64,000 nt of DNA, taken from contig CM102289.1 of the NCBI GenBank assembly GCA_046563655.1, positions 4,774,001 through 4,838,000 of the forward strand, given 5' to 3'. Shown here in pieces: positions 3,001 to 19,092 of the stretch. The stretch comes from Yuukianura sp. NJ FZ-2021. Taxonomy: Eukaryota. Both the position numbers and the translations under genes were made by a program. Under the pieces are notes generated by a model, which worked only from the letters and a program-made list of their open reading frames with translations, did not search any database and was not told where the DNA came from. Positions within the stretch are counted from its first letter, which is position 1. Each line of letters starts with the position of its first letter.

Positions 3001-6000
3001 ACTTTGTAAGATAAGGAAATTTCGTAGTGGTTAAATTAAGGGACTTCTCTTCCGCTCTAATTTGTAAACCCAACCTTTTCCGTTCCTATCCTTACGTTTT
3101 TCCCGGGCCCTTAGCAGTTTCACCTTAGAAGGGGGTTTCTTCCCTTCCAAGGGCCGACCGGTCACTCAAGGTCACGACTTGACCCCCTTTTTACCTCTGG
3201 TAGTAGCAGAAAGAATTTGGCCTCAGTTGATCAGCTACTCCAGCCCGTTATTGATCTCGAGTACTCCAGCCCGAAAATCCAGAATAATCCCGCACCCCAG
3301 TGCCGCACCAACCAACTCCAAACGAACCGAACCAACCAGTACTTACTACCAATAATTCATGCCGCGGTACACAGCAATTTTAGGGGTCACCAACCCCGTG
3401 ACATGAGACTGAGATGTTGTGAGTTCAATTCCAAACAACAAAAAGAGAAAACCGCGCCGCGCCGCTTTACCGCGCTCAACTCGCTAAGTTAATGTGAAAA
3501 CCAATGAGAAAACCAAATGAGAAAAACTCTAATTGAAACCAAACGTGAATCTCTAATTGAAAACCAGTTAATTGAACGGTAAAATGAAACGGTAAACGAA
3601 ACGGTACTTTACAGAAAACGAAACGGTATGAAACGAAAATGTCGAACCCTAAACCGACAGAGTAACAACCCTAACCAACTCTCCCGGGATCGCCACACGG
3701 AGAGGAACCTCAGCAGCAGGCGGGTATCCCGACCACAATCTGCCCATCCACCAACAAGCCCCCGAGTGCATGGAAGATAGCCTGTAGCTGCCTTCTCCCA
3801 TGGAAAAGGCACTCTCAACCATGTACTCCTTTCCCAATTTTAAACAACAAAGGAGAACAGCAGCTGATACTAAATGTGCTTAGTACTAATCAACTTTCTT
3901 CTAGGAGTTGATTAGTACTAAGTTTAAAACGATTCGGAGTCCCTAACTTCAATTAAAATTCGATTAATTAGTTGTGGTTGAGTTTGTGTTTTTTCCTGGC
4001 TTTTGACTTGGAAGTGAAAAGATGAGAAGTGGAAGAGTTGTCCCTACAGTACCAATAGAGGGCGCGCGCTTCTCCCTTTCTTATGAACATGACGCTATTT
4101 TTGCAGTCTCACAACATCCCCCCTCACAAAGCCACGAAGCGGTCAGTACACTTCTTATTCAACATTTTCTCTCCCTGACCCGACTTCCCATTTCCATTCT
4201 GAAGTATTTACAAGAATTCTTACGTTCTAGATTTAACTTGAAGTTTAACATTTTTTTAAAATCAAAAGAAAAATTAATTTTTAATTTAACTATGGGGACA
4301 AAAATCATTTAGGACGAAAGCGAAAAAATTAGAAGGGAGGGATTCCAGTAGTAAGTGATCCAAAGTCCAATCCAGTTCAAAATTACAGGCAGAAGCCTCC
4401 AGGGTCTTCTCCATCCGCCGTTACTCGTCCAGACAACAGTCTCCGTTTCTGGCGGCCATCTTTCCATTTCCAGTCCACATCCAGTTGCATCTTTCCTCGG
4501 AAAGGCCAAGTCCCATCTCTTTTCCTCTGCACGAATCCATCATTGGGGAAACGCGCCTGTGTCGTAGTCAAATCCAGGTTTACTCGCTTCCTCCTGTCCA
4601 TGTCCAACTGAGTTGTCTGGAACTCAGAGAAAAGACGAGCATTAGAGTCATAATCGGGTTTGTCATTTATTTCATTTAATTTTACGCGCCGCTGGCGTTG
4701 CGTGCGTTTGTCCACTACTCTTTCGCAACACGGTTCAATGCAGGACAGTGACATGACAACTACTTCGGAATCTGTGATAGCCTCGGTACTGCCGACAGTC
4801 ACTTCTGCCCAGTCTTCCCAATGTTCAACTTCTGTGGCGATGCATTCTTCAGAATTACAGCCAAAAGTCCCAGTAATCTCTTGCCAAACTTCAGAAGTGT
4901 TGTCGCCCAATGCCGCCGTTCCAAACTGACAATGGCTTTCTTCTGGAGGATCCAACGAACATGAAACTTCCGTCTCTCGAATCAGAGTTTCCGAAGCAAC
5001 TTCGTCTTGGCTCGATGAGAGGCTAGTGCAATTCTCAAAGGCATCAATCAGTCCACAGTATTCAAACCCCGAATCTTCCAAAGATTCTTGCTCCATGTCC
5101 ATTCCAGTATCAAACGTCGAAGAGTGAGAAGCGAGAACCACCGTCGTGCCAGACTCCTGGGTCTGCGCATGAGTACGAGGCTCATCACCGCCCTTCCAAT
5201 CATTTCCTACAGTAGGGCGCTCACTCGTGATTCCCTTGTAGATCCCACTCTGATTTTCCGAAGACATAGGAGCAAACGATACCGAAGACGAATCGTCAAC
5301 GTACGAGTCCACAGGAACTGCCAGTTCCCTTGGGTCAATACCATTCCCCCTCTGCCTTGAAAACCTTTGAGAAGCCCCACCAAAACTTGACCTCTCCCTC
5401 TGACCTCGAGACTTCCATCCATGCCTGTCAATCCATCCAGAATCAGCGTCTGTGGAATGGTTGCTCCCATGGTAGGAGAGTCCAGGGTCAATGACATTGC
5501 CTGTTGTTGGCTCGTGGTACATGTTGTCCAGAGCGATTCTTCTTTCAACTTCCTCGGCTGCTTTGTACAGCTCCCTTGTGTCTGCAAAGCGTTGGCCGAT
5601 CCATCTGAGTCTGTCTCTTGATTCTGGGTTCATCAGTTCAATGACCTGCATGACCTTCTGTTCTTCACTTGGTGAAAATTCCAGCTTGTCGAAGAGTGAG
5701 CACATTGTCAGCACATAATCGGTCAACTTTTCTTCTCTGCCTTGGTAGCGATCCAGAAGTGCTCTCTTCAGCTCATATTGGTAATTCGGGTGTTCAAACT
5801 TGCGTCGGAATTCGGAACGAAACGTACTCCAACTGTCCAGGATCTTGAAGATGAACTGATACCAAATGGCAGCCATTCCTGAGAATGCTACTGGCAAGAC
5901 TTGCTCCATCATGTCCTCTTCGCAGATTCCCCAAACCTGCATGTACCGTTCCAGTTTCAGCAAATACTCGTACGGTTGTACGCAGTAGCTTCCATCAAAC

Positions 6001-9000
6001 TTCGGCAGAGGGCAATCTCTCCGATTCAGTATCTTCCGATCCACTTGCGGTACTTTGTCAGCCATTTTTGTCCGGGTCACTGCCTCAGCACAACCATTTT
6101 TCTGTACTTTACGCCTGCGCCCGCTCTTTTCCATCTTTGTATTTAATTTTAACTTTAACTTTGATTTTGCGCGCGTAGTGGACAAATCATCGTTTGGATT
6201 TGAACTCTGACATCTCTTGTTACTGACCGATCTACCGCCTAAGGGTTTCCCGTCTGAGCCCCCATGTTGTAAGATACGATTTTTCCAGTGGCCAATTAAG
6301 GGCTACAAATCCGGCTCTAATCTGAAACCCGCCCTTTCCGTTCGCTATCCCTTACGTTTACTTGACGGGCCCTTAGTAGTTTCACCTTAAGAAAGGGTTT
6401 CTTCTTTCTTAAGGGCCGATAGAAGGCACTTCACACTCCAGAAGGGTCAACAACCTGAGAATTTGCACGTAGACTTGGCCTCTCTCCTCGCAGTCCAGTG
6501 ACCTTGACCTCTGACCTTTGACTTTCGACTCCGACAGAGAAAATGACAACTCGATTCGTGAAACCGTTAACCAATCAGAAAGCTCTCCAGTTAATCAATC
6601 TTAATTGCTAGGTGACCGAAAACTCCAATTAACTCCAATTAATGACTCGTTAAGTTGAAATGAGATAAAAGAAATTGAGAAATTCCAGAAGTCAGCTGAT
6701 TCGAAGATAAATAAACGTAAACACGAATAACCTTTGACCCAATTGAATGTGTGAGCAAAACAGAGTTCAAATACCAGAGACAATCCTAATTAGAAAACCC
6801 GCGTACGCGTGCGTAGCGTTAATTGATTGAATTAATTGAGAAAAACCGATAAAAACTGAATTAAACTGAGGAAAACTGATTTGAAACCGATTTAAATTGA
6901 TGGAAAACTGATTTAAAACAATTACAATTTAATGCGCGTTGAGTGAAACAAAAAGGAAATTGAATTACGCGCAGTTCCCGTCACTGAAGGTGAACAAAAG
7001 AACAAGAAAACCGAAACGCCAAGAAAACGCGTAAACTTTAACGACGAAAACGACTTTAACGACGAAAAAGACTTTAACGTGAAACTTTAAGTGGTTCTCC
7101 GGATCACCCCGAGCAACCAAACCCTGGGCAGTATGCTGGAAGCCAGCAACACCCTGCCAATACCTGTAGTAGTCCCCGGTCGTCCTTCGAGCATCAATTC
7201 AGCAGCGTTTCCCCCTGGTTTACTGTGTACTGGAAAAGGCATGCCTGGCAGTGGAAAGGCAGGCCAAGGTCTCCTTTCTAGGCCAAAAGGCATGCTTGTC
7301 CATGCACATTGAACCATTAATTAAGGTAGTTTAGGTAGTTGATAGGTAACGGAACTTTAGTGATTTAAGTAGATTAGGATTTTAGTTAATTTTTAGGATA
7401 GTTTAGTTTTAGGTAATTAGCGTTAATTAGTTGGATAATTAGTTTTAAGTTTTGTCTATCTGTTTGCTTGGAAAAGTACTGGGTGCTGCGGCGGTAAAGT
7501 GCGGGAACAGTTTTGGTTTAAATTTGAGTGAAATCTTTCCAGAGGTTTCACTCAAATTCTCACTAGATGGCGTATGCCGTCCAGGGCTCTTTGTGAAGTG
7601 ACGCTCTGTTTTTTGTGCTCTCACAACTTCCCCCCTCCAATTGGCCCGAAAGTCATCGTGTTGAGAAATATTATTTAGCAGACTCTAATACTATTTACAA
7701 AGTAACTGTGACTCTAAATTGTTTGGAAAAATTTAAGTATTTCTTACTTAGAACTGAATTTATAATTGAATAAATTGAAAAACTTGAAGAATCCTCTTGA
7801 GTACTAACGTAGAAGGCAAGGAAACAAGATAGAATTAATTTGAAAAATGACCATTAACTGGAAAGGAAACGATGTCTTCAATCGTCTTCATCCGAGTCCT
7901 TGAACCCAAATTTCTCCTTCTTCATCATTCGAATTTTTCCATTGATCCTGAAGTTATCTCTACCCTCTTTCTCCAGAATCTCCACTCCCTCGAGTTGAGT
8001 CAGCGTCTCAATTCCACGGTGGAGTGCAGGATGAAGGAAGGCGCTGACTCCATCGCCGAAGTTCCACTTCTCCAGAAGGTCATCATCTGCAACGTCGGCT
8101 CGGGAAAGCTTCGGAGGTCGTCTGGGAGTCTCAGCCTGGGTCATACCCTTCTCCTTCTTGATTCTCACCCATGGAATGATTGGGGCCACTTCTGGAACTT
8201 CTAGGCGAGTGATCGGGGCTTCTGGGCGAGTGATTGTGGCCTCGGGCTTCTTCTTTGGAGGAGACTTGGAAGTTCTCGGGGCCGTCATTGGAACTGGAAG
8301 ATCGGCTGAAGTAATGGTGGATGATGGAATCTGCTTCACCGGAACTGACAACTTGGACTGAACTGTCTTTGAGTTTTTCGCTGTGGTCAACTTGAGGGGC
8401 TGAGCAAAGAGGTCGAACTGTGGAGGACTTGGAGAACGACCTCGAGCTTTCTTGGCAATCTGCCTCCGTTCCAGTGCTGCCTTCTGCTTCGCCATTTGAG
8501 CTGTGGCTGACAATTTGGCTGGCTTTTGCTGCTCTAGTTCTTCCTTCCGCTTCTTCTCCAGAAATTCGTCCATGTTCACAAGTGCTTCCACCTGTCTCTC
8601 CTTGGGAACTCCGAACTTCAGCCAGGTATTCATGGGAGCATCTTCTTGTTTCTGCTTCTGTTCTGCCTCGAAAACATCCATGATTTTCTGAACTTGACGG
8701 ATTGGAAGTCCTTGGCTGCGTTTCTTTGGTGGTTCGTATTTCTTCGGCGGAATGTAAGGCCGATCTGTCGTAACCCAAGCTGGAGCTCGCACTGTCAAGT
8801 CTCTCTTGTAGACATCTTTGCCTGGTTCGTTGGAGAAGGAGATCGAGATCACACCTGGGTCGATACAGAAGGAAGGAGGACGCTGAAGCCAGTGGTCGTC
8901 CATTGTTTTGAAATTGAAATTTTGGACTTTGATTGTCCCCGTCTGCCATCTGGGATTTCTCGCAGTGTTGAAGGCATCGGCCTTTTTCGCATCTCGAAGT

Positions 9001-12000
9001 GCTGAGGATCGGCTCACAAATTTGTGTTTCTTCGGAGGAGGAGCGTAGTACGTTGGAAGAATTGGCGGTGGAGGTTGAGGCTGGGACTGGCTCGGATTCA
9101 CTGGGAATGCAATCGGAGGTGGCTCTCGTGTCGGCACTGGTGGAATTGCCAAGTCCCCGAGTCGAATTCCCCCGACAATCATGTTCGGATCCAGATTGCT
9201 CATTCTGGAAGCAACAATAGAAAGGTCGGCAATCAGAAACATGGACTTCACCAACAAATTCGTTCGCGCCAATTGAGTTTAACATTAGGATTGTCTCATT
9301 TTTCTTTCCCGCGACAACAAAAGGACCTTCGAACTTGTTCATGAGAGACGCAGTGATTCCTTTCGCAGCGTTCGACAACACCCTTGATTTACGCAGAATC
9401 AAATCTCCAATCTCATAAGTCACTTCTTTTCTCTTTTTGTTGTACTGTGACATGTACTCTTTTTGAGAAGAAAGTTGATTAGCTTTCGCCAATTCCCAAA
9501 CGTAATTCATTCTCTCTGCCATTTCCTGAGTGTCACTACTTTGACCACCCGGAATTTCCAAAACATTGTCAAACGGAGTTCTCAACTCCCGTCCAAAATT
9601 TAAGTAAGCTGGTGAGAATTTCATGGTTTGATTGACACTTGAATTGAGCGCGAAGCTCAATTCTGCCAAGTATCTGTCCCATTCTTTACATTTTTCGATA
9701 GTCGCAACTATCATTGACTTTAAAGTTTCGTTGTATCTCTCAGTCACATTAGGTTGAGGATGATAAGGTGGAATGAAGAGAGCGTTTACACCAAAAGATT
9801 TGCAGAAGTCCTTGTACACGTTACTTTTCCCGAATGCTGGTCCGTTATCGGCGACAATTGTGGAAGGAAATCCCCAGCGACAGAAAACTTGCCAAAGTTT
9901 CTTTGTTACGACGTCTGCTGTTCCGCTTCGCAGAGGAAAGAGTTCGACCCATTTTGTGAAGTTGTCAACGACGACGAGAAGAAACTTGTTCTGAAAAGAA
10001 CTTCTGGTGTAAGGGCCCATCAAATCAATGTAGAGGTTTTCCCACGGCCGCTTGACTTTTGGAGATGTTCCGAACCCTGCTGGCTTGACTTTCCAGGCTT
10101 TTGCGAGTTGGCAGTCTTCACAACTTTTGACGAAATTTTGAGTGTCTTTGCGCATGGACTTCCACCAGACTCTTTTCTCCAACTTCAAGTAAGTTTTCGA
10201 CGTTCCAAGATGACCACCGATTTTGCTGGAATGAAAATGACGCAGGCAAGTCTCTCTGAGTGAATGTGGAATCCAAAGTCGCCAATGGGTTCCGTCGTCT
10301 TCCCACGGACAGTGAATGTTCCCAATGTACTTGTACAAACAGCCAGATTCGTCAACAAAAGCGGATTCTGCGCGGCGGACAATGTAGTTGTTGTGGTCTC
10401 TGGAGTTCGTAGCCGGCAATTCTTCGTTCTTCAAAAATTTGATGATTGGACCCAGTTCTGCGTCTTGAATTTGTGCATGAGCTAGTTCGTCTTTGTTCGG
10501 AATGTAGTCGGATTCAAGCGTGAGGACTTCGAAGGCACGGGAAAGAGCATCTGCTGTTCGATTCAGAGCGCCTGACCGGTACTTGATCTGATACTTATAG
10601 CCTTGGAGCTCAAGAGCCCACCTAGCCAATCGTCCCGTCGGTTCTTTGATTTTCTGCAGCCACGTCAGCGCTTGATGATCGGTTTCGATTGTGAATTCGG
10701 TAAATTCCAGGTACGCTTTGAATTTCTTGACGGCGTAGATTACGGCGAGACATTCCTTCTCTGTGATGGAGTAATTCAGCTCTGCCCCGTTGAGCTTCCG
10801 GCTGATGAACCAAACTGGAGATCTTCCTTGTTCTGTCTCTTGTAATAGTACTGCACCGATTCCGAGCCCACTGGCATCGCATTGAATTGAAAATGGTTTG
10901 GACAAATCTGGTAGACTGAGTTCGACTTGTGACTGGAGTGTTTTCCGCAAATAATCAAAGCCCTCTTGGCATTCTTTAGTCCATTTGAAAGTTTCAGACT
11001 TCCGAAGAAGTTTAGAAAGTGGAGCAGCTTTAATGGAGAAATCAGGGACAAACTGGCGATAGTATCCAGTGAATCCCAAAAATCTTTGAATGTCTTTAAC
11101 GTTTCGAGGAATTTGATAATTCGTTAAGGCTGAGACTTTGTCAGGGTGGGGACGACATTTGCCCGCCTCAATGACATAGCCAAGAAAGTCAATTTCAGAT
11201 TTACAAAACGCTACTTTTTTCGGATTTATGGTAAATCCTGCTTCAAACATTGTTTTAAAGAAAGCACGTAGATGAATCATGTGTTCTTCTACCGTCTTTG
11301 AGAAAACCAAGAAATCATCGAAAAATCCAAGGACACAATTAAATCTCAACTTGTCCATCACCATGTCCATGGCTCTTTGGAACGTTGCCGGGGAGTTTTT
11401 CATCCCTTGTGGCGTTCTTTTAAATTGGTACAGACCCCGAGGGGTAATGAAAGCTGTCTTAGGCCGGTCCTCGACCGCCACACCGATTTGAAAAAACCCA
11501 TCTGAGAGATCAAACTTTGACATTACGTGACCTTGAGAGAGATAACAGAGAATGTCGTCTATTCTTGGCATTGGGTACTTGTCGTCCTTCGTGACCGCAT
11601 TAACTTCTCGGTAGTCCACACAGAACCGGAAACTGCCGTTCTTCTTTGGAGTCAGTAGCACGTGGGAGGCCCAAGGACTTCTCGCAGGCTCCACCAAGTC
11701 GTTCGCAATCAGTTTGTCAAGTTCGTCCAGCAAAATGTCTCGTTTAACTGAGGTCATAGGGCGAGGGTGACAGAAAATCGGTTTCGCGTCTCCAGTGTCG
11801 ATTCGGTGCTCAAAGACAGAACAGAAACCCGGCTTCTTCGTGAAAATACTGGAAAAATCTGAGATAATTCCCCGCAGTTCCCTCGAGTGATCAACCGGAA
11901 GGTCAACGCCCTTCATTAAGTCGTCGATTAGTTCAACATTCTCAAGACCCTCAGACAAGGAGCACTCCAAAAGCTCATCTCCCTCATCTAAACCACAATT

Positions 12001-15000
12001 TGAGAACGGCATGTCCAACAGACCATTGCCCGGACCACCTGACAACTCCAACGACGAAGAGTGGGAATCGGAGACCACCGTCGTGCCAGACTCCTGGGTC
12101 TGCGCATGAGTACGAGTCACATCACCGCCCTTCCCAACATTTCCTACAGTAGGGCGCTCACTCGTGGTCCCCCTGTTGAGCCCACTCCGACTACGAGACG
12201 ACTTTGTTTTTGGTTTGACCTGACTTGGAAGATTCTTTGGGTCTGAATCGAATGCAGTTTCGGATTTTGAAAAAGAAAACTTGGGCTGGTCATCACTCCC
12301 GATCAACCACCCAGAAGGAAAAACCCCAGCGTTAAACTTTGAAAGAAAATCTCTGCCCAAGACCACAGAACGAGACAAATTAGGACTAACGACAAAATGC
12401 TGCTTACACTTTCCTCCCTGCCACTCCACCGTGAGGTCAACTGCTTCATCTGTGATGAATGTACCCGCCGCCTGACGAATAGAATGAGGAGATTTTAGAA
12501 GACGAATGTTGAATGTTTTAACGAGATGCAAAATTTGACCTCCCACAAGTGAAATTGAAGATCCGGTGTCTAACAAAGCTTCGAAGGCCTGATTCAGAAT
12601 TTTAACAGAAACTAATGGTGGAGAATTCTCTACTTCGGTACTCAAAGATTCGGCTGTATTGCAATTTGAAACGGAATTGGTAAGATGATCTGGAGCTACG
12701 GAAGTTAGGAGATTTCCCCGGATCGGAGCTGGAGTTATTGCTGACCCGGGGTTTTGCCGTTTCCCGAGGGCAACGACTGTGACGTACTTTGAAGCTTTGG
12801 ACAGTCTCGGCGCCAATGCCCGGATTCCTTGCAGTTGAAACAGTGTTGAGAATTGTTCGGAACTTCGGCTCCTGTGCCATTGATACTGGGTCTCATGTCC
12901 GGAGGCAAGAGACGGTCGTAGGCTGGTTTGAAAACTTGAGTGGTGCGAGGAACGAAGCTGTTTGTCGGAAGAATGCTGTTCTGTTGTGCTGGAGCCCTTG
13001 GTTGCTCTGTTCTTGGTGCCGAATTGGTAACTGGCAAGTCCTGAGTCTGCGCAGGCTTGGATTCTGGACGCTGTCCCTGAGTTTGGTAGTTTTGCGTACC
13101 CTGAGTACTCTGATTTTGATAGCGGGGAGCATGATCTCTGCGAGGCTGTCCACGATTGTCGTCTTGTCGGTGCTGGCTCTGTTCCGGTTTCGCAAAGGCC
13201 AGTCCTGGATCAATGTGAGAAAATGTCGCCGGCTCCTTGTAGGCCCTGTCCTGCTCGATGCTCTTCTCCACGTTGCATGCTTCTTGGTAAAGCTCCATTG
13301 TAGTTCGGTAACGTTTTCCAGTTTGTTCAAGTCTGCGACGAGAATCTGGGTGTAGAAGTGTCCAAATATTTTTGAGAATCTCTTCTTCCGGTGGACAGAA
13401 GGTCAGCTTGTTGTAGAGATTGCGCATGGCCAGAATGTAGTCAGTGAGTCGCTCCTCCTTCCCTTGGTACCGGTCCAGAATGGCCTTGGAGAGTTGACGC
13501 TGGAAATCGGCTGGTTCGAACTTGTTTCGGAATTCTCGACAGAAATCCGTCCAAGTAAATAACCGATGACAAATGAAGCGATACCACGTGGAAGCATCTC
13601 CCTCCATGGAAATGGGCAGAACCAAATCCAGCATCTGCTGCTCTGACAACTCCCTACTCTTTTGAAATTTTTTGAGCTCCAAAATGAAATCGTACGGCTG
13701 AACCCTGTCCTTACTACCTCTGTACTTTGGAACCTTAATGTCGCCTCCCTTCAACACATTCCCTGACTTGGACGGTCGCCTGGCCGAAGAATCCCGACGG
13801 CAACGACTCGAGGGTTCATCGTCACTCGAAAGTTCATCCGAATTCCCCTCGGTAAAGACTCGAGACGGATTCCGCGACTCAGCAACCGGAAGTGACAAAG
13901 AAGCCAACTGTGCCATCATTGTTTTCAAATCATCTTTAAGTTCATTAACTCCGGAGAGTTGTTCTTTAAGTTTGTCCATGTCTTTGCGCATGGCATCGAC
14001 GGCTTTTAATTCAGAAACGTGAGTGTCAACAACTGGTTGTTCTTTAGGTATACACGGAGGTGGTGTACTTTGTCGACTGCGCGAACCTCTGCGTGATTCT
14101 CTCTCCTGACTCTCCCCCTCCTCAAAGTCAACGCTCGCCCTGGCCCTTTTGTTCTTCTTTCCTCGCGGCGCCATTTTTGTATTGTTACTTCCGCTTTTGC
14201 TCAATCAGTTCCTTCTATCTACTACTCAAGGATTTCCCGTCTGAGCCCCCATGTTGTAAGATAAGGAATTTTCGTAGTGGTTAAATTAAGGGACTTCTCT
14301 TCCGCTCTAATTTGTAAACCCCCTTTTCCGTTCCTATCCTTACGTTTTTTCCCGGGCCCTTAGCAGTTTCACCTTAGAAGGGGGTTTCTTCCCTTTCAAG
14401 GGCCGACCGGTCACTCAAGATCACGACTTGACCCCCTTTTTACCTCTGGTAGTAGCAGAAAGAATTTGGCCTCAGTTGATCAGCTACTCCAGCCCGTTAT
14501 TGATCTCGAGTACTCCAGCCCGAAAATCCAGAATAATCCCGCACCCCAGTGCCGCACCAACCAACTCAAACGACTCGAACCAACCAGTACTTACTACCAA
14601 TAATTCAAATGCCGCGGTACACAGCAATTTTAGGGGTCACCAACCCCGTGACATGAGACTGAGATGTTGTGAGTTCAATTCCAAACAACAAAAGAGAAAA
14701 CCGCGCCGCGCCGCTTTACCGCGCTCAACTCGCTAAGTTAATGTGAAAACCAATGAGAAAACAAATGAGAAAAACTCTAATTGAAACCAAACGTGAATCG
14801 CTAATTGAAAACCAGTTAATTGAACGGTAAAATGAAACGGTAAACGAAACGGTACTTTACAGAAAACGAAACGGTATGAAACGAAAATGTCGAACCCTAA
14901 ACCGACAGAGTAACAACCCTAACCAACTCTCCCGGGATCGCCACACGGAGAGGAACCCTCAGCAGCAGGCGGGAATCCCGACCACAATCTGCCCATCCAC

Positions 15001-18000
15001 CAACAAGCCATCCGAGTGCATGGAAGAGAGCCTCTTACTGCCTTCTCCCATGGAAAAGGCACTCTCAACCATGTACTCCTTTCCCCATTTTAAACAACAG
15101 AAGAAAACAGCAGCTGATACTAAATGTGCTTAGTACTAATCAACTTTCTTGTGGGAGTTGATTAGTACTAAGTTTGAAATGATTCGGAGTCCCTAACATT
15201 AATTAAAATTAGATTAATTAGTTGTGGTTGTGTTTGTGTTTTTCCTGGCTTTTGACTTGGAAGTGAAAAGATGAGAAGTGGAAGAGTTGTCCCTACAGTA
15301 CCAATAGAGGGCGCGCGCTTCTCCCTTTCTTATGAACATGACGCTATTTTTGCAGTCTCACAACATCCCCCCTCACAAAGCCACGAAGCGGTCAGTACAC
15401 TTCTTATTCAACATTTTCTCTCCCTGACCCGACTTCCCATTTCCATTTTACAGTATTTACAAGAAATCTTAAATTCTAGATTTAACTTGAAGTTTAACAT
15501 TTTAAAAAATCAAAAGAAAAATTAATCTTTAATTTAACTATGGGGACAAAAATTCATTTAGGACGAAATTCGAAAAATTTACAAAGGAGGGAATCCAGCA
15601 GTAGGCAATCCAAAGTCCAATCCAGTTCAACATTACAGGCAGAAGCCTCCAGGGTCTTCTCCATCAGCAGTCACTCGTCCAGACAACAGTCTCCGTTTCT
15701 GGCGGCCATCTTTCCATTTCCAGTCCACATCCAGTTGCATCTTTCCTCGGAAAGGCCAAGTCCCATCTCTTTTCCTCTGCACGAATCCATCATTGGGGAA
15801 ACGCGCCTGTGTCGTAGTCAAATCCAGGTTTACTCGCTTCCTCCTGTCCATGTCCAACTGAGTTGTCTGGAACTCAGAGAAAAGACGAGCATTAGAGTCA
15901 TGATCGGTGATGTCATTTGTTTCATTTAGTTTTACGCGCCGCTGGCATTGCGTGCGTTTGTCCACTACTCTTTCGCGACACGGTTCAATACTGGACAGTG
16001 ACCTGACAACTACTTCGGAATCTGTGATAGCCTCGGTACTGCCATCAGTCACTTCTGCCCAGTCTTCCCAATGTTCGATTTCTGTGGCGATGCATTCTTC
16101 GAAATTGCAGTCAAAAGTCCCAGTAATCTCTTCCCACACTTCAGAAGTGTTGTCGCCCAATGCCGCCGTTCCAAACTGACAATGGCTTTCTTCTGGAGGA
16201 TCCAACGAACATGAAACTTCCGTCTCTCGAATCAGAGTTTCCGAAGCAACTTCGTCTTGGCTCGATGAGAGGCTAGTGCAATTCTCAAAGGCATCAATCA
16301 GTCCACAGTATTCAAACCCCGAATCTTCCAAAGATTCTTGCTCCATGTCCATTCCAGTATCAAACGTCGAAGAGTGAGAAGCGAGAACCACCGTCGTGCC
16401 AGACTCCTGGGTCTGCGCATGAGTACGAGGCTCATCACCGCCCTTCCAATCATTTCCTACAGTAGGGCGCTCACTCGTGATTCCCTTGTAGATCCCACTC
16501 TGATTTTCCGAAGACATAGGAGCAAACGATACCGAAGACGAATCGTCAACGTACGAGTCCACAGGAACTGCCAGTTCCCTTGGGTCAATACCATTCCCCC
16601 TCTGCCTTGAAAACCTTTGAGAAGCCCCACCAAAACTTGACCTCTCCCTCTGACCTCGAGACTTCCGTCCACGCCTGTCAATCCATCCAGAATCAGCGTC
16701 TGTGGAATGGTTGCTCCCATGGTAGGAGAGTCCAGGGTCAATGACATTGTCTGTTGTTGGCTCGTGGTACATGTTGTCCAGAGCGATTCTTCTTTCAACT
16801 TCTTCGGCTGCTTTGTACAGCTCCCTTGTGTCTGCAAAGCGTTGGCCAATCCATCTGAGTCTGTCTCTTGATTCTGGGTTCATCAGTTCAATGACCTGCA
16901 TGACCTTCTGTTCTTCGGTGTTTGGAGATTCAAGCTTGTCGAAGAGTGAGCACATTGTCAGCACATAATCGGTCAATCTTTCTTCTCTGCCTTGGTAGCG
17001 ATCCATCAGTGCTCTCTTCAGCTCACGTTGGTAATTGGGATGCTCGAACTTGCGTCGGAATTCGGAACGAAACGTACTCCAACTGTCCAGGATCTTGAAG
17101 ATGAACTGATACCAAATGGCAGCCATTCCTGAGAATGCTACTGGCAAGACTTGCTCCATCATGTCCTCTTCGCAGATTCCCCAAACCTGCATGTACCGTT
17201 CCAGTTTCAGCAAATACTCGTACGGTTGTACGCAGTAGCTTCCATCAAACTTCGGCAGAGGGCAATCTCTCCGATTCAGAATCTTGCGATCCACTTGCGG
17301 TACTTTCTCAGCCATCTTTGTGCGGGTCACTGCCTCAGCACAACCATTTCCCTGCACTTTACGCCTGCGCCCGCTCTTTTCCATCTTTGTATTTAATTTT
17401 AACTTTGACTTTGAATTTACGCGCGTAGTGGACAAATCATCGTTTGGATTTGAACTCTGACATCTCTTGTTGCTGACCGATCTACCGCTTAAGGATTTCC
17501 CGTCTGAGCCCCCATGTTGTAAGATAAGGAAATTTCGTAGTGGTTAAATTAAGGGACTTCTCTTCCGCTCTAATTTGTAAACCCAACCTTTTCCGTTCCT
17601 ATCCTTACGTTTTTCCCGGGCCCTTAGCAGTTTCACCTTAGAAGGGGGTTTCTTCCCTTTCAAGGGCCGACCGGTCACTCAAGATCACGACTTGACCCCC
17701 TTTTTACCTCTGGTAGTAGCAGAAAGAATTTGGCCTCAGTTGATCAGCTACTCCAGCCCGTTATTGATCTCGAGTACTCCAGCCCGAAAATCCAGAATAA
17801 TCCCGCACCCCAGTGCCGCACCAACCAACTCCAAACGAACCGAACCAACCAGTACTAACTACCAATAATTGACATGCCGCGGTACACAGCAATTTTAGGG
17901 GTCACCAACCCCGTGACATGAGACTGAGATGTTGTGAGTTCAATTCCAAACAACAAAAGAGAAAACCGCGCCGCGCCGCTTTACCGCGCTCAACTCGCTA

Positions 18001-19092
18001 AGTTAATGTGAAAACCAATGAGAAAACCAAATGAGAAAAACTCTAATTGAAACCAAACGTGAATCGCTAATTGAAAACCAGTTAATTGAACGGTAAAATG
18101 AAACGGTAAACGAAACGGTACTTTACAGAAAACGAAACGGTATGAAACGAAAATGTCGAACCCTAAACCGACAGAGTAACAACCCTAACCAACTCTCCCG
18201 GGATCGCCACACGGAGAGGAACCCTCAGCAGCAGGCGGGAATCCCGACCACAATCTGCCCATCCACCAACAATCCACCCGAGTGCATGGAAGAGAGCCTC
18301 TACCTGCCTTCTCCCATGGAAAAGGCACTCTCAACCATGTACTCCTTTCCTAATTTTAAACAACAGAGGAGTACAGCAGCTGATCTAATTGTGCTTAGTA
18401 CTAATCAACTTTCTTCTGGGAGTTGATTAGTACTAAGTTTGAAATGATTCGGAGTCCCTAACATTAATTAAAATTAGATTAATTAGTTGTGGTTGAGTTT
18501 GTGTTTTTTCCTGGCTTTTGACTTGGAAGTGAAAAGATGAGAAGTGGAAGAGTTGTCCCTAAACTACCAGTAGAGGGCGCGCGCTTCTCCCTTTCTTATG
18601 AACATGACGCTATTTTTGCAGTCTCACAACTTGACTGTTTTATTTGTTGTTTATGTATTGTAGCTGGAATGGGAATGACGGAACCGGATGCAATGCCTTT
18701 AAATCATAAACTACAACCTCGATATAATGACGAAGAAGGAAGCGACGATGAAGCTGAGGCGAATGGAAAATCTGGTGGATTTGAGGCGTTTGTGGAAGAC
18801 CCAGCAATTGTCCGCGCGAGGATGGAGCAGAGGCGAGCTGACAAGTACAATAGAGGTCGAGGTCAGAGGAATCCCGGACAATTTCAAAGGGATGTCGTGG
18901 GTAAGTCGGATTGCCATTTGATATATCGCAGTTTTGTATTTGTTCTTTGTGTATGCCAGTATTTCTTCTTTACCAGGAGTGGCGAAAGGTCATGGCCAAA
19001 GTGCTGAAGTTGTTCACAACCGTCGTAGGAAAGACGAAGCGGGAAGCCACAATCGTCGGAGGGGAGCTGATTTCAAGCGTAGAGAGTTCTAA
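1..19092 (+). CDS. ASCC2: Activating signal cointegrator 1 complex subunit 2 (CUE domain), multi-exon, 5' end outside the window; the intron 2332-18663 holds the retroelement array
   Basis: Motifs WLLGLPHHKFWS, FLRLSTFKE, FDVPKLFDL, CUE-like LVSQVKDLLPDL and YQDEYDDTYDE (exon ends 2331, G|gtaag). Splicing to the acceptor at 18663 restores the frame (EAGMG...FVEDPAIVRARMEQRR). Last exon 18977-19092 reads GVAKGHGQSAEVVHNRRRKDEAGSHNRRRGADFKRREF*, matching the ASCC2 C-terminus pattern. Confidence 0.9.
3005..4113 (-). repeat. LTR type A, copy 1 (3' LTR of the array)
   Basis: TGTAAG...TCTCACA, about 1.11 kb, alignable to 14255-15362 and 17518-18628; PPT adjacent at 4114-4125. Confidence 0.95.
4114..4125 (-). 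promoter_or_regulatory. Polypurine tract (further PPTs at 7626-7638 and 15363-15374)
   Basis: Minus strand GAGGGGGGATGT, or GGAGGGGGGAAGT at 7626-7638, immediately 5' of an LTR. Confidence 0.85.
4383..6134 (-). CDS. Gag-only ORF of the non-autonomous element, copy 1 (capsid domain plus acidic extension; no CCHC, PR, RT or IN)
   Basis: First ATG at 6134 (frame open from 6185). Retrotransposon capsid motifs PKFDG..QPYEYL, AAIWY, WSTFRSEFRRKF, DRYQGREEKLTDY, homologous to the Gag at 12735-14174. Confidence 0.85.
   Translation of the reverse strand: MEKSGRRRKVQKNGCAEAVTRTKMADKVPQVDRKILNRRDCPLPKFDGSYCVQPYEYLLKLERYMQVWGICEEDMMEQVLPVAFSGMAAIWYQFIFKILDSWSTFRSEFRRKFEHPNYQYELKRALLDRYQGREEKLTDYVLTMCSLFDKLEFSPSEEQKVMQVIELMNPESRDRLRWIGQRFADTRELYKAAEEVERRIALDNMYHEPTTGNVIDPGLSYHGSNHSTDADSGWIDRHGWKSRGQRERSSFGGASQRFSRQRGNGIDPRELAVPVDSYVDDSSSVSFAPMSSENQSGIYKGITSERPTVGNDWKGGDEPRTHAQTQESGTTVVLASHSSTFDTGMDMEQESLEDSGFEYCGLIDAFENCTSLSSSQDEVASETLIRETEVSCSLDPPEESHCQFGTAALGDNTSEVWQEITGTFGCNSEECIATEVEHWEDWAEVTVGSTEAITDSEVVVMSLSCIEPCCERVVDKRTQRQRRVKLNEINDKPDYDSNARLFSEFQTTQLDMDRRKRVNLDLTTTQARFPNDGFVQRKRDGTWPFRGKMQLDVDWKWKDGRQKRRLLSGRVTADGEDPGGFCL
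6247..6264 (-). promoter_or_regulatory. Primer-binding site, tRNA-Pro-like (identical copies at 14234-14251 and 17497-17514)
   Basis: TGGGGGCTCAGACGGGAA, 3 nt after the LTR end; TGGGGGCTC is complementary to the 3' end of eukaryotic tRNA-Pro (..GAGCCCCCA). Confidence 0.8.
6268..7625 (-). repeat. LTR type B (about 1.36 kb, single copy)
   Basis: TGTAAGATA...CTCTCACA, flanked by a PBS and a PPT. Alignable to LTR-A only over about 150 bp at the PBS-proximal end and about 60 bp at the PPT-proximal end. Confidence 0.88.
7033..7091. repeat. Short tandem repeat (about 19-bp unit ACTTTAACGACGAAAA.G, about 3 copies) inside LTR-B
   Basis: Seen directly. Confidence 0.75.
7878..9203 (-). CDS. ORF3 of the autonomous element: 441-aa Pro/Lys-rich protein of unknown function at the env position, not Env-like
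   Basis: ATG at 9203, one nt after a branch point-pyrimidine tract-CAG acceptor; intact frame; no signal peptide or transmembrane stretch visible. Confidence 0.75.
   Translation of the reverse strand: MSNLDPNMIVGGIRLGDLAIPPVPTREPPPIAFPVNPSQSQPQPPPPILPTYYAPPPKKHKFVSRSSALRDAKKADAFNTARNPRWQTGTIKVQNFNFKTMDDHWLQRPPSFCIDPGVISISFSNEPGKDVYKRDLTVRAPAWVTTDRPYIPPKKYEPPKKRSQGLPIRQVQKIMDVFEAEQKQKQEDAPMNTWLKFGVPKERQVEALVNMDEFLEKKRKEELEQQKPAKLSATAQMAKQKAALERRQIAKKARGRSPSPPQFDLFAQPLKLTTAKNSKTVQSKLSVPVKQIPSSTITSADLPVPMTAPRTSKSPPKKKPEATITRPEAPITRLEVPEVAPIIPWVRIKKEKGMTQAETPRRPPKLSRADVADDDLLEKWNFGDGVSAFLHPALHRGIETLTQLEGVEILEKEGRDNFRINGKIRMMKKEKFGFKDSDEDD
8131..12765 (-). CDS. pol: Ty3/Gypsy Pol (PR-RT-RH-IN), reached by -1 frameshift from gag, with a long C-terminal extension overlapping ORF3
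   Basis: PR LLDTGSS; RT FCVDYREVN..LGFFDDFLV; RH QCDASGLGIG..TEKECLA..TDHQAL; IN H-x6-H..C-x2-C, IDLMGP, VADNGPAF, ERYN, GPF. Domain order is Gypsy-type; no internal stops. Confidence 0.95.
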   Translation of the reverse strand, partial: GKRQNPGSAITPAPIRGNLLTSVAPDHLTNSVSNCNTAESLSTEVENSPPLVSVKILNQAFEALLDTGSSISLVGGQILHLVKTFNIRLLKSPHSIRQAAGTFITDEAVDLTVEWQGGKCKQHFVVSPNLSRSVVLGRDFLSKFNAGVFPSGWLIGSDDQPKFSFSKSETAFDSDPKNLPSQVKPKTKSSRSRSGLNRGTTSERPTVGNVGKGGDVTRTHAQTQESGTTVVSDSHSSSLELSGGPGNGLLDMPFSNCGLDEGDELLECSLSEGLENVELIDDLMKGVDLPVDHSRELRGIISDFSSIFTKKPGFCSVFEHRIDTGDAKPIFCHPRPMTSVKRDILLDELDKLIANDLVEPARSPWASHVLLTPKKNGSFRFCVDYREVNAVTKDDKYPMPRIDDILCYLSQGHVMSKFDLSDGFFQIGVAVEDRPKTAFITPRGLYQFKRTPQGMKNSPATFQRAMDMVMDKLRFNCVLGFFDDFLVFSKTVEEHMIHLRAFFKTMFEAGFTINPKKVAFCKSEIDFLGYVIEAGKCRPHPDKVSALTNYQIPRNVKDIQRFLGFTGYYRQFVPDFSIKAAPLSKLLRKSETFKWTKECQEGFDYLRKTLQSQVELSLPDLSKPFSIQCDASGLGIGAVLLQETEQGRSPVWFISRKLNGAELNYSITEKECLAVIYAVKKFKAYLEFTEFTIETDHQALTWLQKIKEPTGRLARWALELQGYKYQIKYRSGALNRTADALSRAFEVLTLESDYIPNKDELAHAQIQDAELGPIIKFLKNEELPATNSRDHNNYIVRRAESAFVDESGCLYKYIGNIHCPWEDDGTHWRLWIPHSLRETCLRHFHSSKIGGHLGTSKTYLKLEKRVWWKSMRKDTQNFVKSCEDCQLAKAWKVKPAGFGTSPKVKRPWENLYIDLMGPYTRSSFQNKFLLVVVDNFTKWVELFPLRSGTADVVTKKLWQVFCRWGFPSTIVADNGPAFGKSNVYKDFCKSFGVNALFIPPYHPQPNVTERYNETLKSMIVATIEKCKEWDRYLAELSFALNSSVNQTMKFSPAYLNFGRELRTPFDNVLEIPGGQSSDTQEMAERMNYVWELAKANQLSSQKEYMSQYNKKRKEVTYEIGDLILRKSRVLSNAAKGITASLMNKFEGPFVVAGKKNETILMLNSIGANEFVGEVHVSDCRPFYCCFQNEQSGSEHDCRGNSTRGLGNSTSADTRATSDCIPSESEPVPASTSTANSSNVLRSSSEETQICEPILSTSRCEKGRCLQHCEKSQMADGDNQSPKFQFQNNGRPLASASSFLLYRPRCDLDLLLQRTRQRCLQERLDSASSSLGYDRSALHSAEEIRTTKETQPRTSNPSSSENHGCFRGRTEAETRRCSHEYLAEVRSSQGETGGSTCEHGRISGEEAEGRTRAAKASQIVSHSSNGEAEGSTGTEADCQESSRSFSKSSTVRPLCSAPQVDHSEKLKDSSVQVVSSGEADSIIHHYFSRSSSSNDGPENFQVSSKEEARGHNHSPRSPDHSPRSSRSGPNHSMGENQEGEGYDPG
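12716..12765 (-). promoter_or_regulatory. Programmed -1 ribosomal frameshift signal
   Basis: G GGA AAC heptamer (12765-12759) in the gag frame, 7-nt spacer, then stem CCCCGGGTC / GATCCGGGG; pol is in the -1 frame. Confidence 0.85.
12735..14174 (-). CDS. gag: Gag of the autonomous element (coiled coil, capsid, CCHC zinc knuckle)
   Basis: ATG at 14174; capsid motifs; CFNCKESGHWRRDC knuckle. Confidence 0.93.
   Translation of the reverse strand: MAPRGKKNKRARASVDFEEGESQERESRRGSRSRQSTPPPCIPKEQPVVDTHVSELKAVDAMRKDMDKLKEQLSGVNELKDDLKTMMAQLASLSLPVAESRNPSRVFTEGNSDELSSDDEPSSRCRRDSSARRPSKSGNVLKGGDIKVPKYRGSKDRVQPYDFILELKKFQKSRELSEQQMLDLVLPISMEGDASTWYRFICHRLFTWTDFCREFRNKFEPADFQRQLSKAILDRYQGKEERLTDYILAMRNLYNKLTFCPPEEEILKNIWTLLHPDSRRRLEQTGKRYRTTMELYQEACNVEKSIEQDRAYKEPATFSHIDPGLAFAKPEQSQHRQDDNRGQPRRDHAPRYQNQSTQGTQNYQTQGQRPESKPAQTQDLPVTNSAPRTEQPRAPAQQNSILPTNSFVPRTTQVFKPAYDRLLPPDMRPSINGTGAEVPNNSQHCFNCKESGHWRRDCPKLQSTSQSLPSGNGKTPGQQ
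14255..15362 (-). repeat. LTR type A, copy 2 (shared: 3' LTR of Gag-only copy 2 and 5' LTR of the autonomous element)
   Basis: TG...CA, PBS on one side and PPT on the other, no TSD. Confidence 0.95.
15633..17384 (-). CDS. Gag-only ORF of the non-autonomous element, copy 2
   Basis: Same length as copy 1 with about 30 amino-acid differences by eye; intact. Confidence 0.85.
   Translation of the reverse strand: MEKSGRRRKVQGNGCAEAVTRTKMAEKVPQVDRKILNRRDCPLPKFDGSYCVQPYEYLLKLERYMQVWGICEEDMMEQVLPVAFSGMAAIWYQFIFKILDSWSTFRSEFRRKFEHPNYQRELKRALMDRYQGREERLTDYVLTMCSLFDKLESPNTEEQKVMQVIELMNPESRDRLRWIGQRFADTRELYKAAEEVERRIALDNMYHEPTTDNVIDPGLSYHGSNHSTDADSGWIDRRGRKSRGQRERSSFGGASQRFSRQRGNGIDPRELAVPVDSYVDDSSSVSFAPMSSENQSGIYKGITSERPTVGNDWKGGDEPRTHAQTQESGTTVVLASHSSTFDTGMDMEQESLEDSGFEYCGLIDAFENCTSLSSSQDEVASETLIRETEVSCSLDPPEESHCQFGTAALGDNTSEVWEEITGTFDCNFEECIATEIEHWEDWAEVTDGSTEAITDSEVVVRSLSSIEPCRERVVDKRTQCQRRVKLNETNDITDHDSNARLFSEFQTTQLDMDRRKRVNLDLTTTQARFPNDGFVQRKRDGTWPFRGKMQLDVDWKWKDGRQKRRLLSGRVTADGEDPGGFCL
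17518..18628 (-). repeat. LTR type A, copy 3 (5' LTR of the array)
   Basis: TG...CA followed by the TSD ACTT. Confidence 0.95.

Follow-up and report, generated by a model that had tools for sequence, protein, structure and literature searches.

In the fission yeast Schizosaccharomyces pombe, Tf1 cDNA enters immediately upstream of a resident Tf2 element at the identical primer-binding site (PBS), and a single long terminal repeat (LTR) lies between the two elements (PMC11042837). According to the accessible portion of that report, formation of these Tf1-Tf2 tandems was shown experimentally to be independent of integrase and to depend on Rad52 single-strand annealing (PMC11042837). Complex elements with flanking duplications and swapped LTRs are described for the Triticeae and rice in the available sections of two further sources (PMC1950507; 10.1101/452573). 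In rice, flanking duplications accompany 45 of the 63 complex elements, and the pre-integration recombination model set out in the available text also covers swapped LTRs (10.1101/452573). Furthermore, the tandem and chimeric non-autonomous elements of sugar beet form arrays of 3 to 21 LTRs and, as far as the consulted part of the source extends, keep the duplication in 73 of 97 tandem copies (PMC13570524).

The locus described here joins two element families in one chain. It lies in a window, the whole stretch of DNA that was analysed, of 64,000 nucleotides, which contains no N. Read on the minus strand from 18628 to 3005, the chain runs LTR-A, gag-only, LTR-A, gag-pol-ORF3, LTR-B, gag-only, LTR-A. 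One complete retrovirus-like element and two units keeping only the capsid gene are placed head to tail at one insertion site. The host genome appears arthropod-like or animal-like.

Materials and methods

LTR copies were delimited by self-BLAST and a repeat finder. Public sequencing data comprised five runs from two studies, with no RNA, and contigs from four of the runs were compared at k=31. The contig comparison spanned 5301-15620 only, avoiding long repeats; the outer flanks, LTR-A1, LTR-A3 and the empty site lie outside this interval.

Structure and boundaries of the chain

Four LTRs and three internal regions, all in one orientation, make up the chain, and neighbouring internal regions are separated by a single LTR. 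The two gag-only internal regions are called g1 and g2. The LTRs and the flanking duplication are located as follows.

3001..3004, plus strand: left copy of the target-site duplication ACTT, 4 bp
3005..4113, minus strand: LTR-A1, LTR at the 3' end of the chain; outer terminus processed to CA, with no 3-nt spacer
6268..7625, minus strand: LTR-B, shared by the autonomous unit (as 3' LTR) and g1 (as 5' LTR); multi-copy in public contigs
14255..15362, minus strand: LTR-A2, shared by g2 (as 3' LTR) and the autonomous unit (as 5' LTR)
17518..18628, minus strand: LTR-A3, LTR at the 5' end of the chain; outer terminus processed to TG
18629..18632, plus strand: right copy of the target-site duplication ACTT, 4 bp

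The whole chain is bracketed by one 4-bp duplication, ACTT (3001-3004 and 18629-18632), and a match of four out of four bases at fixed ends has a chance probability of 1/256. The outer ends are TG...CA and stand directly against ACTT without 3-nt spacers, unlike the inner LTRs, which retain these spacers on both sides. When the four bases flanking each candidate sub-element were compared, no internal duplication was found except for AAGT (minus strand), which precedes LTR-B and is the sole flank match. This match is regarded as a coincidence, representing the normal PPT-LTR-B joint of the family (PPT, polypurine tract), because it is present in a multi-copy contig covering 7490-7838 that differs from the window by one letter and one gap. 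Nested insertion would leave its host element interrupted and the inner element flanked by a duplication of its own, and neither sign was found at the locus. Shared single LTRs and a flanking target-site duplication, as in tandem or complex LTR retrotransposons, are both present. The chain is confirmed as a real composite of three Ty3/gypsy-type units.

The LTRs belong to two types. Pairwise substitution identities among the LTR-A copies are 98.1, 98.0 and 97.7%, with 21 substitutions between A3 and A2, 22 between A3 and A1 (the outer pair) and 25 between A1 and A2. The three copies are equidistant (1.9-2.3%) and star-like with interleaved private sites, and this interleaving rules out A3 as a simple two-block mosaic of A1 and A2. 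No simple one-step model accounts for the equidistance. LTR-B, with a length of 1358 nt, differs in type and is similar to LTR-A only in the last ~155 nt (78%) and the first ~10-25 nt. TATA or AATAAA-type signals were sought in the LTRs to place U3, R and U5; none was present in LTR-A, and LTR-B holds one ATTAAA-type site. The two LTRs of the autonomous unit are unlike, the 5' being of type A and the 3' of type B, alignable over about 155 nt at 78%. With such mismatched LTRs, the autonomous unit as it stands is therefore no product of a single standard replication cycle.

Autonomous middle unit

7878..9242, minus strand: ORF3, 454 aa, proline/lysine-rich; overlaps the end of the pol frame that is not conserved
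8134..13209, minus strand: open pol frame, 1692 aa, with domain matches to protease, RT, RNase H and integrase
12047..12190, minus strand: 144-nt island, copy of the autonomous unit, in the protease-RT linker
12735..14174, minus strand: gag, 479 aa, CCHC knuckle present; -1 frame overlap with pol

The middle unit is an intact autonomous Ty3/gypsy element whose own LTR type is B. Its pol frame carries RVP (residues 196-294), RVT_1 (521-680), RNase H (743-871), an integrase zinc domain (980-1038) and rve (1061-1151), which is the Ty3/gypsy (Metaviridae-type) order of protease, RT, RNase H and integrase. Conservation of the frame with relatives stops near residue 1330. Further Ty3/gypsy features are a capsid-domain Gag with CCHC, TG...CA LTRs, a PBS and a PPT; the one departure from the type is that its two LTRs are not alike. 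ORF3 has no assignable Pfam family, shows no resemblance to the closest pol relative and gave no usable match in the Atlas.

Gag-only units

4383..6134, minus strand: g1 ORF, 583 aa, with a Gag-like N-terminal half, no zinc knuckle and no pol
5110..5253, minus strand: 144-nt island, g1 copy, 88% identical to that of the autonomous unit
15633..17384, minus strand: g2 ORF, 583 aa
16360..16503, minus strand: 144-nt island, g2 copy, identical to that of g1

The gag-only internal regions occupy 4117-6264 (g1) and 15366-17514 (g2). They differ by 80 substitutions over 2147 aligned bases (3.7%), distributed in patches (chi-square p = 1.7e-7), and their dN/dS is 0.30. No indel separates them in the 1752-nt ORF, compared with three in 397 non-coding nt. 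Because of the number and patchiness of the substitutions, the dN/dS and the confinement of indels to non-coding sequence, g1 and g2 do not represent an in-place duplication.

The sole domain match of the two gag-only ORFs is Retrotrans_gag, and identity of their Gag core to that of the autonomous unit is only 42%. Common to both families are a 31-nt LTR-end/PBS block, a 35-nt leader (91%) and the 144-nt island (88%), and likewise the PPT and the LTR ends. With no pol and with cis signals in common with an autonomous element, the gag-only units have the make-up expected of the helper-dependent class. They constitute a diverged, more abundant non-autonomous family that has its own LTR type, A, and shares only cis signals with the middle unit. 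This family may be mobilised in trans by the proteins of the helper, for which the dN/dS of 0.30 and the higher contig depth (depth is not equal to copy number) provide indirect support. A word-indexed protein search over lengths 320-1021 gave no homologue of the gag-only protein at E <= 0.001, and in the Atlas it matched just generic retrotransposon Gag clusters (0.90-0.92). A role of the 144-nt island as a structured packaging signal is unsupported, its stability being no better than that of shuffles (z = 0.18, -0.24).

Internal joints

4117..4123, minus strand: polypurine tract of g1; spacer 4114-4116
6246..6264, minus strand: PBS of g1, within the invariant 31-nt block; spacer 6265-6267
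7629..7635, minus strand: polypurine tract of the autonomous unit; joint bridged by a public contig of run X1
14233..14251, minus strand: PBS of the autonomous unit; spacer 14252-14254
15366..15372, minus strand: polypurine tract of g2
17496..17514, minus strand: PBS of g2; spacer 17515-17517

Motif positions and junction alignments give three joints of PPT, 3 nt and LTR, and three of LTR, 3 nt and PBS. The 31-nt block formed by the LTR end and the 19-nt PBS is invariant across all three units. The PBS presumably resembles a tRNA-Pro primer site; a tRNA gene search across the window found none, and an exact metagenome scan with a 29-nt LTR-end/PBS pattern returned 0 matches. Each internal region is followed by the LTR type of its own family, g2 by A, the autonomous region by B and g1 by A. 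Until the last 12 nt before their 3' ends, LTR-A2 remains type A and LTR-B type B. At both mixed joints, the distance from the last LTR-type-specific base to the first leader-type-specific base is 36 nt, in the same window, which encloses the 31-nt block. The only long identity common to both families covers the final 12 nt of the LTR, the 19-nt PBS and a few bases past it.

The structural side of the original prediction was borne out. Its end coordinates, 3005 and 18628, are exact, and its seven-part minus-strand order with exact PPT-LTR-PBS joins was confirmed to the base. The flank comparison agrees that there is one ACTT outside and none inside, with AAGT judged a coincidence, and the lack of internal duplications and of an interrupted host element upholds the view that this is not ordinary nesting. 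The LTR alignments likewise agree with the mismatch predicted for the autonomous unit (A, B) and one gag-only unit (B, A). Moreover, the two families do look like helper and satellite, given gag-only ORFs without pol and common cis signals, and the mixed joints fall as predicted at the U5 end/PBS, both within the 36-nt window.

Public contigs

In X1 the summed contig depth, which is not equal to copy number, reached about 4000-7700 over LTR-A and 2300-3100 over g; the corresponding values were about 700-1650 over LTR-B and 180-520 over the autonomous interior. The canonical joint A-PBS-g was seen in three of the four runs (X1, X2, X3), and the canonical joint of LTR-B, PBS and autonomous leader in one of the four (X3). 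No bridge over the mixed joints at 6246-6268 and 14233-14255 occurred among the 31 pieces listed of 1988; contigs of k=31 must break at the shared 31-mer. Public contigs also contain A/B hybrid joints, which hint at hybrid LTRs.

Origin of the chain

The observations to be explained are the anatomy of the chain, its breakpoint windows, the relation of the two families and the intact genes. Judging from the sequence and from the yeast analogy, the chain somewhat more probably than otherwise arose when complete cDNAs of both families were joined by homology-directed DNA recombination at the common PBS/LTR-end block. The building block would be PBS, internal region, PPT and own-type LTR, three such blocks following one 5' LTR-A, and joining would proceed via single-strand annealing or crossover at the LTR-end/PBS identity. 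Joining of cDNAs is favoured because each internal region precedes the LTR of its own family, because both mixed joints share the 36-nt window holding the invariant 31-nt block, and because one ACTT flanks processed ends while the inner LTRs keep their spacers. It is further favoured because g1 and g2 are not in-place duplicates and because Tf1/Tf2 and rice offer precedents. The proposal is weakened because the LTR-A copies are equidistant and form neither an identical pair nor a two-block mosaic. Intact ORFs totalling about 10 kb suggest a young chain; if it is indeed young, a stepwise origin or one from three cDNAs would predict at least two LTR-A copies that are identical or a two-block mosaic.

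A cDNA substrate, a recombination pathway and an order of events are what we infer, and two routes may be considered. Tentatively, the blocks may have been added stepwise, without integrase, onto a resident gag-only copy already bearing ACTT, as Tf1 cDNA is added at Tf2. Only slightly less credence is given to the second route, in which free cDNAs would have been joined among themselves before one integrase-mediated insertion. As in Tf1/Tf2, a single LTR of the incoming type stands between the incoming and the downstream unit, and an identical PBS lies at the joint. By analogy, a Tf1/Tf2-type pathway with Rad52 annealing and a pre-existing resident element may have acted at the locus.

The original prediction offered a different mechanism, in which co-packaged helper and satellite genomes were concatenated and integrated as one unit. 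In a broader reading of it, concatenation at the PBS would take place during or just after reverse transcription, and mismatched-LTR units and hybrid LTRs would be regular products. This scenario is considered unlikely, and its specific form, where the DNAs from co-packaged helper and satellite RNAs are concatenated by intermolecular plus-strand strong-stop transfer at the PBS before a single integration, is considered improbable. Strong-stop DNA bridging two minus strands would indeed give an internal region with its own 3' LTR and a U5-PBS joint; one duplication and processed outer ends suit a single integrase event, and the common PBS block, leader, 144-nt island, PPT and LTR ends make co-packaging plausible. 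However, three units require three minus-strand DNAs per particle (retroviral particles carry two RNAs), and the bridged nick would have to be sealed rather than resolved by strand displacement. The transfer also predicts that the 5'-most LTR copies another LTR of the chain, and A3 does not, differing from A2 by 21 substitutions and from A1 by 22. Nor is the retained duplication specific to integration as one unit, being equally expected from homology-driven addition of cDNA to a resident copy, to judge from the available part of the yeast report (PMC11042837). Recombination at the U5/PBS, the alternative named in the original prediction, is considered the most likely type of event. A minus-strand template switch as modelled by Sabot and Schulman (PMC1950507) was rejected: it needs a U3/U5 hybrid inner LTR and most-similar outer LTRs, and neither is seen, the outer LTR-A pair differing by 22 substitutions and the remaining pairs by 21 and 25.

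Recombination after integration, among genomic copies, could have acted by break repair switching templates at the PBS block or by repeated ectopic conversion, and is improbable as well, since several template switches, each within the same 36-nt window, would be required. It would keep the resident duplication and find abundant templates from both families, and later conversion from active copies would explain open ORFs despite mutually different LTR-A copies. The patchy differences between g1 and g2 resemble conversion tracts, but recombination in the source lineages while they were reverse transcribed would produce them just as readily. An assembly artefact, with extra units threaded through repeated LTRs into a simpler true element such as A-gag-only-A, has only a slight probability: the window is without N, the copies are distinguishable (2% between LTRs, 3.7% between g1 and g2), the matching duplication places both outer ends at one site, every joint is exact and no ORF is interrupted. 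In its favour are repeats of 1.1-3.4 kb at 95-98% identity and mixed joints beyond the reach of k=31 contigs; short-read polishing of repeats could, speculatively, have created the equidistant LTR differences. Complex elements of Arabidopsis and Triticeae most often arise from independent insertions, nested or adjacent, whether or not LTR-LTR deletion of the intervening DNA followed (a Devos-type recombinant complex); there, 20 recombinant cases stand against 2 of template switching (PMC1950507). Here, however, neither internal duplications nor an interrupted host element are present, and recombination between adjacent insertions should leave unmatched flanks, whereas four of four bases match (chance 1/256). 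Such independent insertions are largely refuted at this locus, and the Devos-type origin is extremely improbable.

Comparison with known systems

The two unlike LTR types serve as natural markers: they tell which internal region each LTR travelled with, and they narrow both mixed joints down to the 36-nt PBS window, which homogeneous tandems cannot do. This makes the locus useful as a test case from nature, both for PBS-directed, integrase-independent joining of the fission-yeast kind in animals and for LTR exchange between helper and satellite. If co-packaged concatenation were true, a parasitic gag-only element would be linked in cis to its helper, as a two-component system in an arthropod lineage. 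A chain of helper and gag-only units in an animal was not found in the open-access literature searched. The original prediction restricted known shared-LTR tandems to plant TRIMs and Ty1, which is too narrow in view of the examples from Triticeae, rice, sugar beet and Tf1-Tf2 in the accessible parts of the sources.

Tandems formed by LTR-LTR ectopic recombination in Drosophila melanogaster resemble the chain in that they are arthropod elements with an LTR common to neighbours (PMC5932611). They differ in involving one family, inferred from short-read junctions, and the available text presents no helper-satellite make-up or analysis of flanking duplications (PMC5932611). In the wheat pair RLG_Quinta and RLG_Cereba, the satellite likewise keeps its own diverged gag and relies on the RT and integrase of its partner, and RLG_Quinta has LTR and priming motifs in common with RLG_Cereba along with signs of recombination; as presented in the accessible sections, however, the copies are dispersed and separate, not joined in one chain (PMC11302176). 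Some chimeric copies in sugar beet bear an LTR donated by another family, but these are small non-coding TRIM-like plant elements, and no chain with an autonomous helper is described in the consulted part of that source (PMC13570524).

The Poaceae complexes share with the chain an LTR common to internal regions, one flanking duplication and reported unlike LTRs, and their proposed origins, by template switching or cDNA recombination, are also pre-integration (Sabot and Schulman 2007, PMC1950507; Zeng and Sun 2018, bioRxiv 10.1101/452573). They differ in that the unit pairs described in the available text belong to a single family with three LTRs (PMC1950507; 10.1101/452573). Their template-switch type has most-similar outer LTRs (PMC1950507), which the chain does not have. 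The Tf1-Tf2 tandems are alike in that two distinct related LTR elements stand head to tail with a single LTR between and a joint at the common identical PBS, and in that the incoming unit lies upstream of a resident whose flanks are retained, as far as the accessible portion reports (PMC11042837). Both Tf elements, however, are described there as autonomous and near-identical over RT and IN, with LTRs alike. The chain, in contrast, lies in an animal-like genome, joins a helper to a gag-only satellite and comprises three units with LTRs of two types; its putative pathway is suggested by the likeness to Tf1-Tf2. The locus reveals no new kind of element or mechanism; a recombination product familiar from plants and yeasts occurs here naturally in mixed-family form.

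Structure of the chain

The chain at 3005-18628 of the window consists of two gag-only satellite units (g1 and g2), an autonomous helper unit between them and four LTRs. Its repeats were located by self-comparison of the first 22 kb of the window, which yielded three copies of a 1.11-kb LTR (LTR-A) and a 3.4-kb duplication (3004-6419 against 14254-17670).

Features of the chain and its surroundings
3001-3004 and 18629-18632: copies of the ACTT duplication, flanking the outer ends of the chain
3005-4113, minus strand: LTR-A1, from self-comparison; last LTR in minus-strand order
6268-7625, minus strand: LTR-B, 1358 nt, unlike LTR-A; between the autonomous unit and g1
7878-9242, minus strand: ORF3, overlapping the open pol tail (pol frame 8134-9219, about 1.1 kb)
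5110-5253 (g1), 12047-12190 (helper) and 16360-16503 (g2): 144-nt island, 88% between helper and satellite
14255-15362, minus strand: LTR-A2, from self-comparison; between g2 and the autonomous unit
17518-18628, minus strand: LTR-A3, from self-comparison; first LTR in minus-strand order
26891-27847, plus strand: host coding fragment, leucine-rich-repeat ORF, weak match
29652-30110, plus strand: host coding fragment, acetyl-CoA transporter 1 domain, E = 3.5e-41

Along the minus strand, LTR-A3 is followed by a 3-nt spacer and a 19-nt primer binding site (PBS), g2, a G-rich polypurine tract (PPT) with a 3-nt spacer, and LTR-A2. After LTR-A2 come a PBS, gag, pol, a third ORF, a PPT and LTR-B, and after LTR-B a PBS, g1, a PPT and LTR-A1. 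Each satellite carries one Gag-like ORF of 583 aa. The outer ends of the chain are TG...CA, without the 3-nt spacers; the four-of-four flank match at these fixed ends has a chance probability of 1/256, and the window contains no N. In self-comparison, joint positions and ACTT flanks, the coordinates and description of the original prediction proved exact.

At the LTR edges, the TG...CA core is set off from PPT and PBS by 3 nt (e.g. 14252-14254 and 15363-15365); a spacing of two nucleotides is more usual. In public sequencing runs X3 and X4, other LTR-A copies have loose ends that begin no more than 1 nt from these core ends. Together with the absence of spacers at the outer ends, this suggests that 3 nt are removed when the element integrates. 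Directly before LTR-B, the minus strand reads AAGT (7626-7629), which is how the outer ACTT duplication reads on that strand. This AAGT also lies inside a multi-copy contig with one other letter and one gap relative to the window over 7490-7838; it is therefore taken to belong to the PPT-LTR-B joint usual in this family, and its likeness to the outer duplication to be coincidental.

Both host coding fragments are located downstream of the chain and indicate that it lies inside gene-bearing DNA, not a repeat desert. No additional copy of the chain repeats was found in the rest of the window.

Helper and satellite units

The helper is intact, with a Gag of 479 aa that has a capsid domain and a CCHC knuckle. 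Its pol frame, overlapping gag in the -1 frame, is open for 1692 aa and encodes protease, RT, RNase H and integrase in Ty3/gypsy order. The best match overall to the RT-integrase part is a metagenome protein (72%), and the closest named relatives are gag-pol proteins of springtail (48%), pseudoscorpion and ticks. Judged by similarity, here and in the host coding fragments, the host is most likely an arthropod. ORF3 starts where pol conservation among relatives ends, and the overlapped pol tail is open yet unconserved. Family searches found no known protein family for ORF3. Among the variant sites listed from public contigs, seven lie in the ORF3/pol overlap; because most of them are synonymous in the ORF3 frame (5/7, against 1/7 in the pol frame), ORF3 looks like the constrained frame.

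The capsid core of the gag-only units is 42% identical to helper Gag, and these units lack the knuckle and any pol. Satellite-helper DNA sharing is limited to the LTR ends, the final 155 nt of the LTR (78%), the PBS and leader (91% over 35 nt), part of gag (66% over 131 nt), the 144-nt island (88%) and the PPT. On these grounds, a recent origin of the gag-only units by deletion from the helper is rejected. Between g1 and g2 there are 80 substitutions over 2147 aligned bases, patchily distributed (chi-square p = 1.7e-7), with a dN/dS of 0.30; indels number none in the ORF and three in 397 non-coding bases. These features indicate different, selected source lineages for g1 and g2 and rule out in-place duplication.

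g1 and g2 carry identical copies of the 144-nt island, whose neighbouring sequence is unrelated between helper and satellite. The encoded peptide is also kept in the 72% pol relative, and fold prediction gave nothing unusual for the RNA. Possible roles for the island are a cis signal common to helper and satellite, or a linker at a protease site.

Mixed joints and LTR ownership

In an alignment of the three LTR-end/PBS/leader joints, the last position that separates A from B is 13 nt short of the LTR end, and the first leader base diagnostic of gag-only against autonomous units 25 nt after the PBS start. Both mixed joints (LTR-A2 to the autonomous unit, LTR-B to g1) therefore fall within the same 36-nt interval, which includes a 31-nt block that does not vary among the units. 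Moreover, each internal region is followed by the LTR of its own family, so the chain can be described as a 5' LTR-A followed by three modules, each made up of PBS, interior, PPT and own LTR.

Parts of the stretch are present in five public runs (X1-X5) from two studies, and four runs, all with contigs assembled from 31-letter words, were compared over 5301-15620, a range set to keep clear of the long repeats. Summed contig depth in X1, which is no copy number, was about 4000-7700 for LTR-A, 2300-3100 for the gag-only interior, 700-1650 for LTR-B and 180-520 for the autonomous interior. Among the matches listed (31 of 1988 pieces), LTR-A-PBS-gag-only-leader joints occur in X1, X2 and X3, and the LTR-B-PBS-autonomous-leader joint in X3 only. 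Additionally, a contig from X1 (record 2) spans the PPT-LTR-B joint of the autonomous unit, with one other letter and one gap. These joints and the order of parts along the chain both support LTR-A as the LTR native to the gag-only family and LTR-B as that of the helper. None of the same 31 listed pieces bridges a mixed joint, and contigs of 31-letter words necessarily break at the shared 31-mer, so this is no evidence for or against the mixed joints. That the chain is an assembly artefact is considered improbable.

Public contigs also hold joints from mid-LTR-A (LTR-A2, about 14873-15101) to mid-LTR-B (about 7053-7168), in both directions. One of them, 14873 to 7053 (depth 339 in X1 and 209 in X2), lies at a short AAACG-type repeat common to both LTRs. 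Such joints hint that the genome has hybrid A/B LTR subtypes but, with sides of just 24-50 nt, are no more than a lead. X3, a run from a different study labelled as a second organism, contains both element families in contigs 90-99% alike; hence both are common to at least two labelled taxa or strains.

Origin of the chain

Nested or adjacent independent insertions are excluded, as the outer flanks match, no duplication lies inside the chain and no element is interrupted; the original prediction was right that this is not ordinary nesting. Minus-strand template switching (Sabot and Schulman, PMC1950507) predicts hybrid inner LTRs, with U3 from one parent and U5 from the other, and outer LTRs as the most similar pair. 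However, the inner LTRs keep to one type until 12 nt from their ends, and the outer LTR-A copies, at 22 substitutions, are not more alike than the remaining pairs (21 and 25), so this model fails. The plus-strand transfer at the PBS first proposed for the chain agrees with its module structure, but it requires three minus-strand DNAs per particle and nick sealing in place of strand displacement, and LTR-A3, predicted to be a copy of another chain LTR, matches none.

The favoured mechanism is that finished cDNAs would have been joined by homology at the PBS/LTR-end identity. Either a cDNA would have been added by homology to a resident copy, as for Tf1 at Tf2, or the cDNAs would have recombined before integration. 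A single duplication would be kept or created under either version and is therefore no demonstration of integration as one unit. Excerpts of Li et al. (PMC11042837) describe Tf1 cDNA inserted directly upstream of a resident Tf2, with a single LTR between them and the joint at the identical PBS, via Rad52 single-strand annealing and also with wild-type integrase. For rice, Zeng and Sun (bioRxiv 10.1101/452573) give flanking duplications in 45 of 63 complex elements and propose pre-integration cDNA recombination, swapped-LTR elements included.

ORFs are open throughout the chain (about 10 kb in all), which argues for a young chain. The LTR-A copies are mutually divergent by 1.9-2.3%, in a star-like pattern with interleaved private sites. 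This is unlike what all simple young-chain models predict, namely at least two LTR-A copies that are identical or simply mosaic. The divergence possibly reflects more than three donor cDNAs, subsequent ectopic conversion from active copies, or repeat-polishing errors in the assembly.

Comparison with known systems

Tandem or complex elements with shared LTRs are known from Triticeae, rice, yeasts and, in excerpts of PMC5932611, Drosophila. In sugar beet, 97 tandem copies are described, of which 73 have duplications and some are chimeras carrying donated LTRs (excerpts of PMC13570524), and gag-only satellites of Ty3/gypsy helpers are known in wheat (excerpts of PMC11302176). No comparable chain of helper and gag-only satellite was found in the open-access literature searched. 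What is new is the combination: a helper is linked with two copies of its gag-only satellite in a single chain, the genome is animal-like, and two types of LTR mark the joints.
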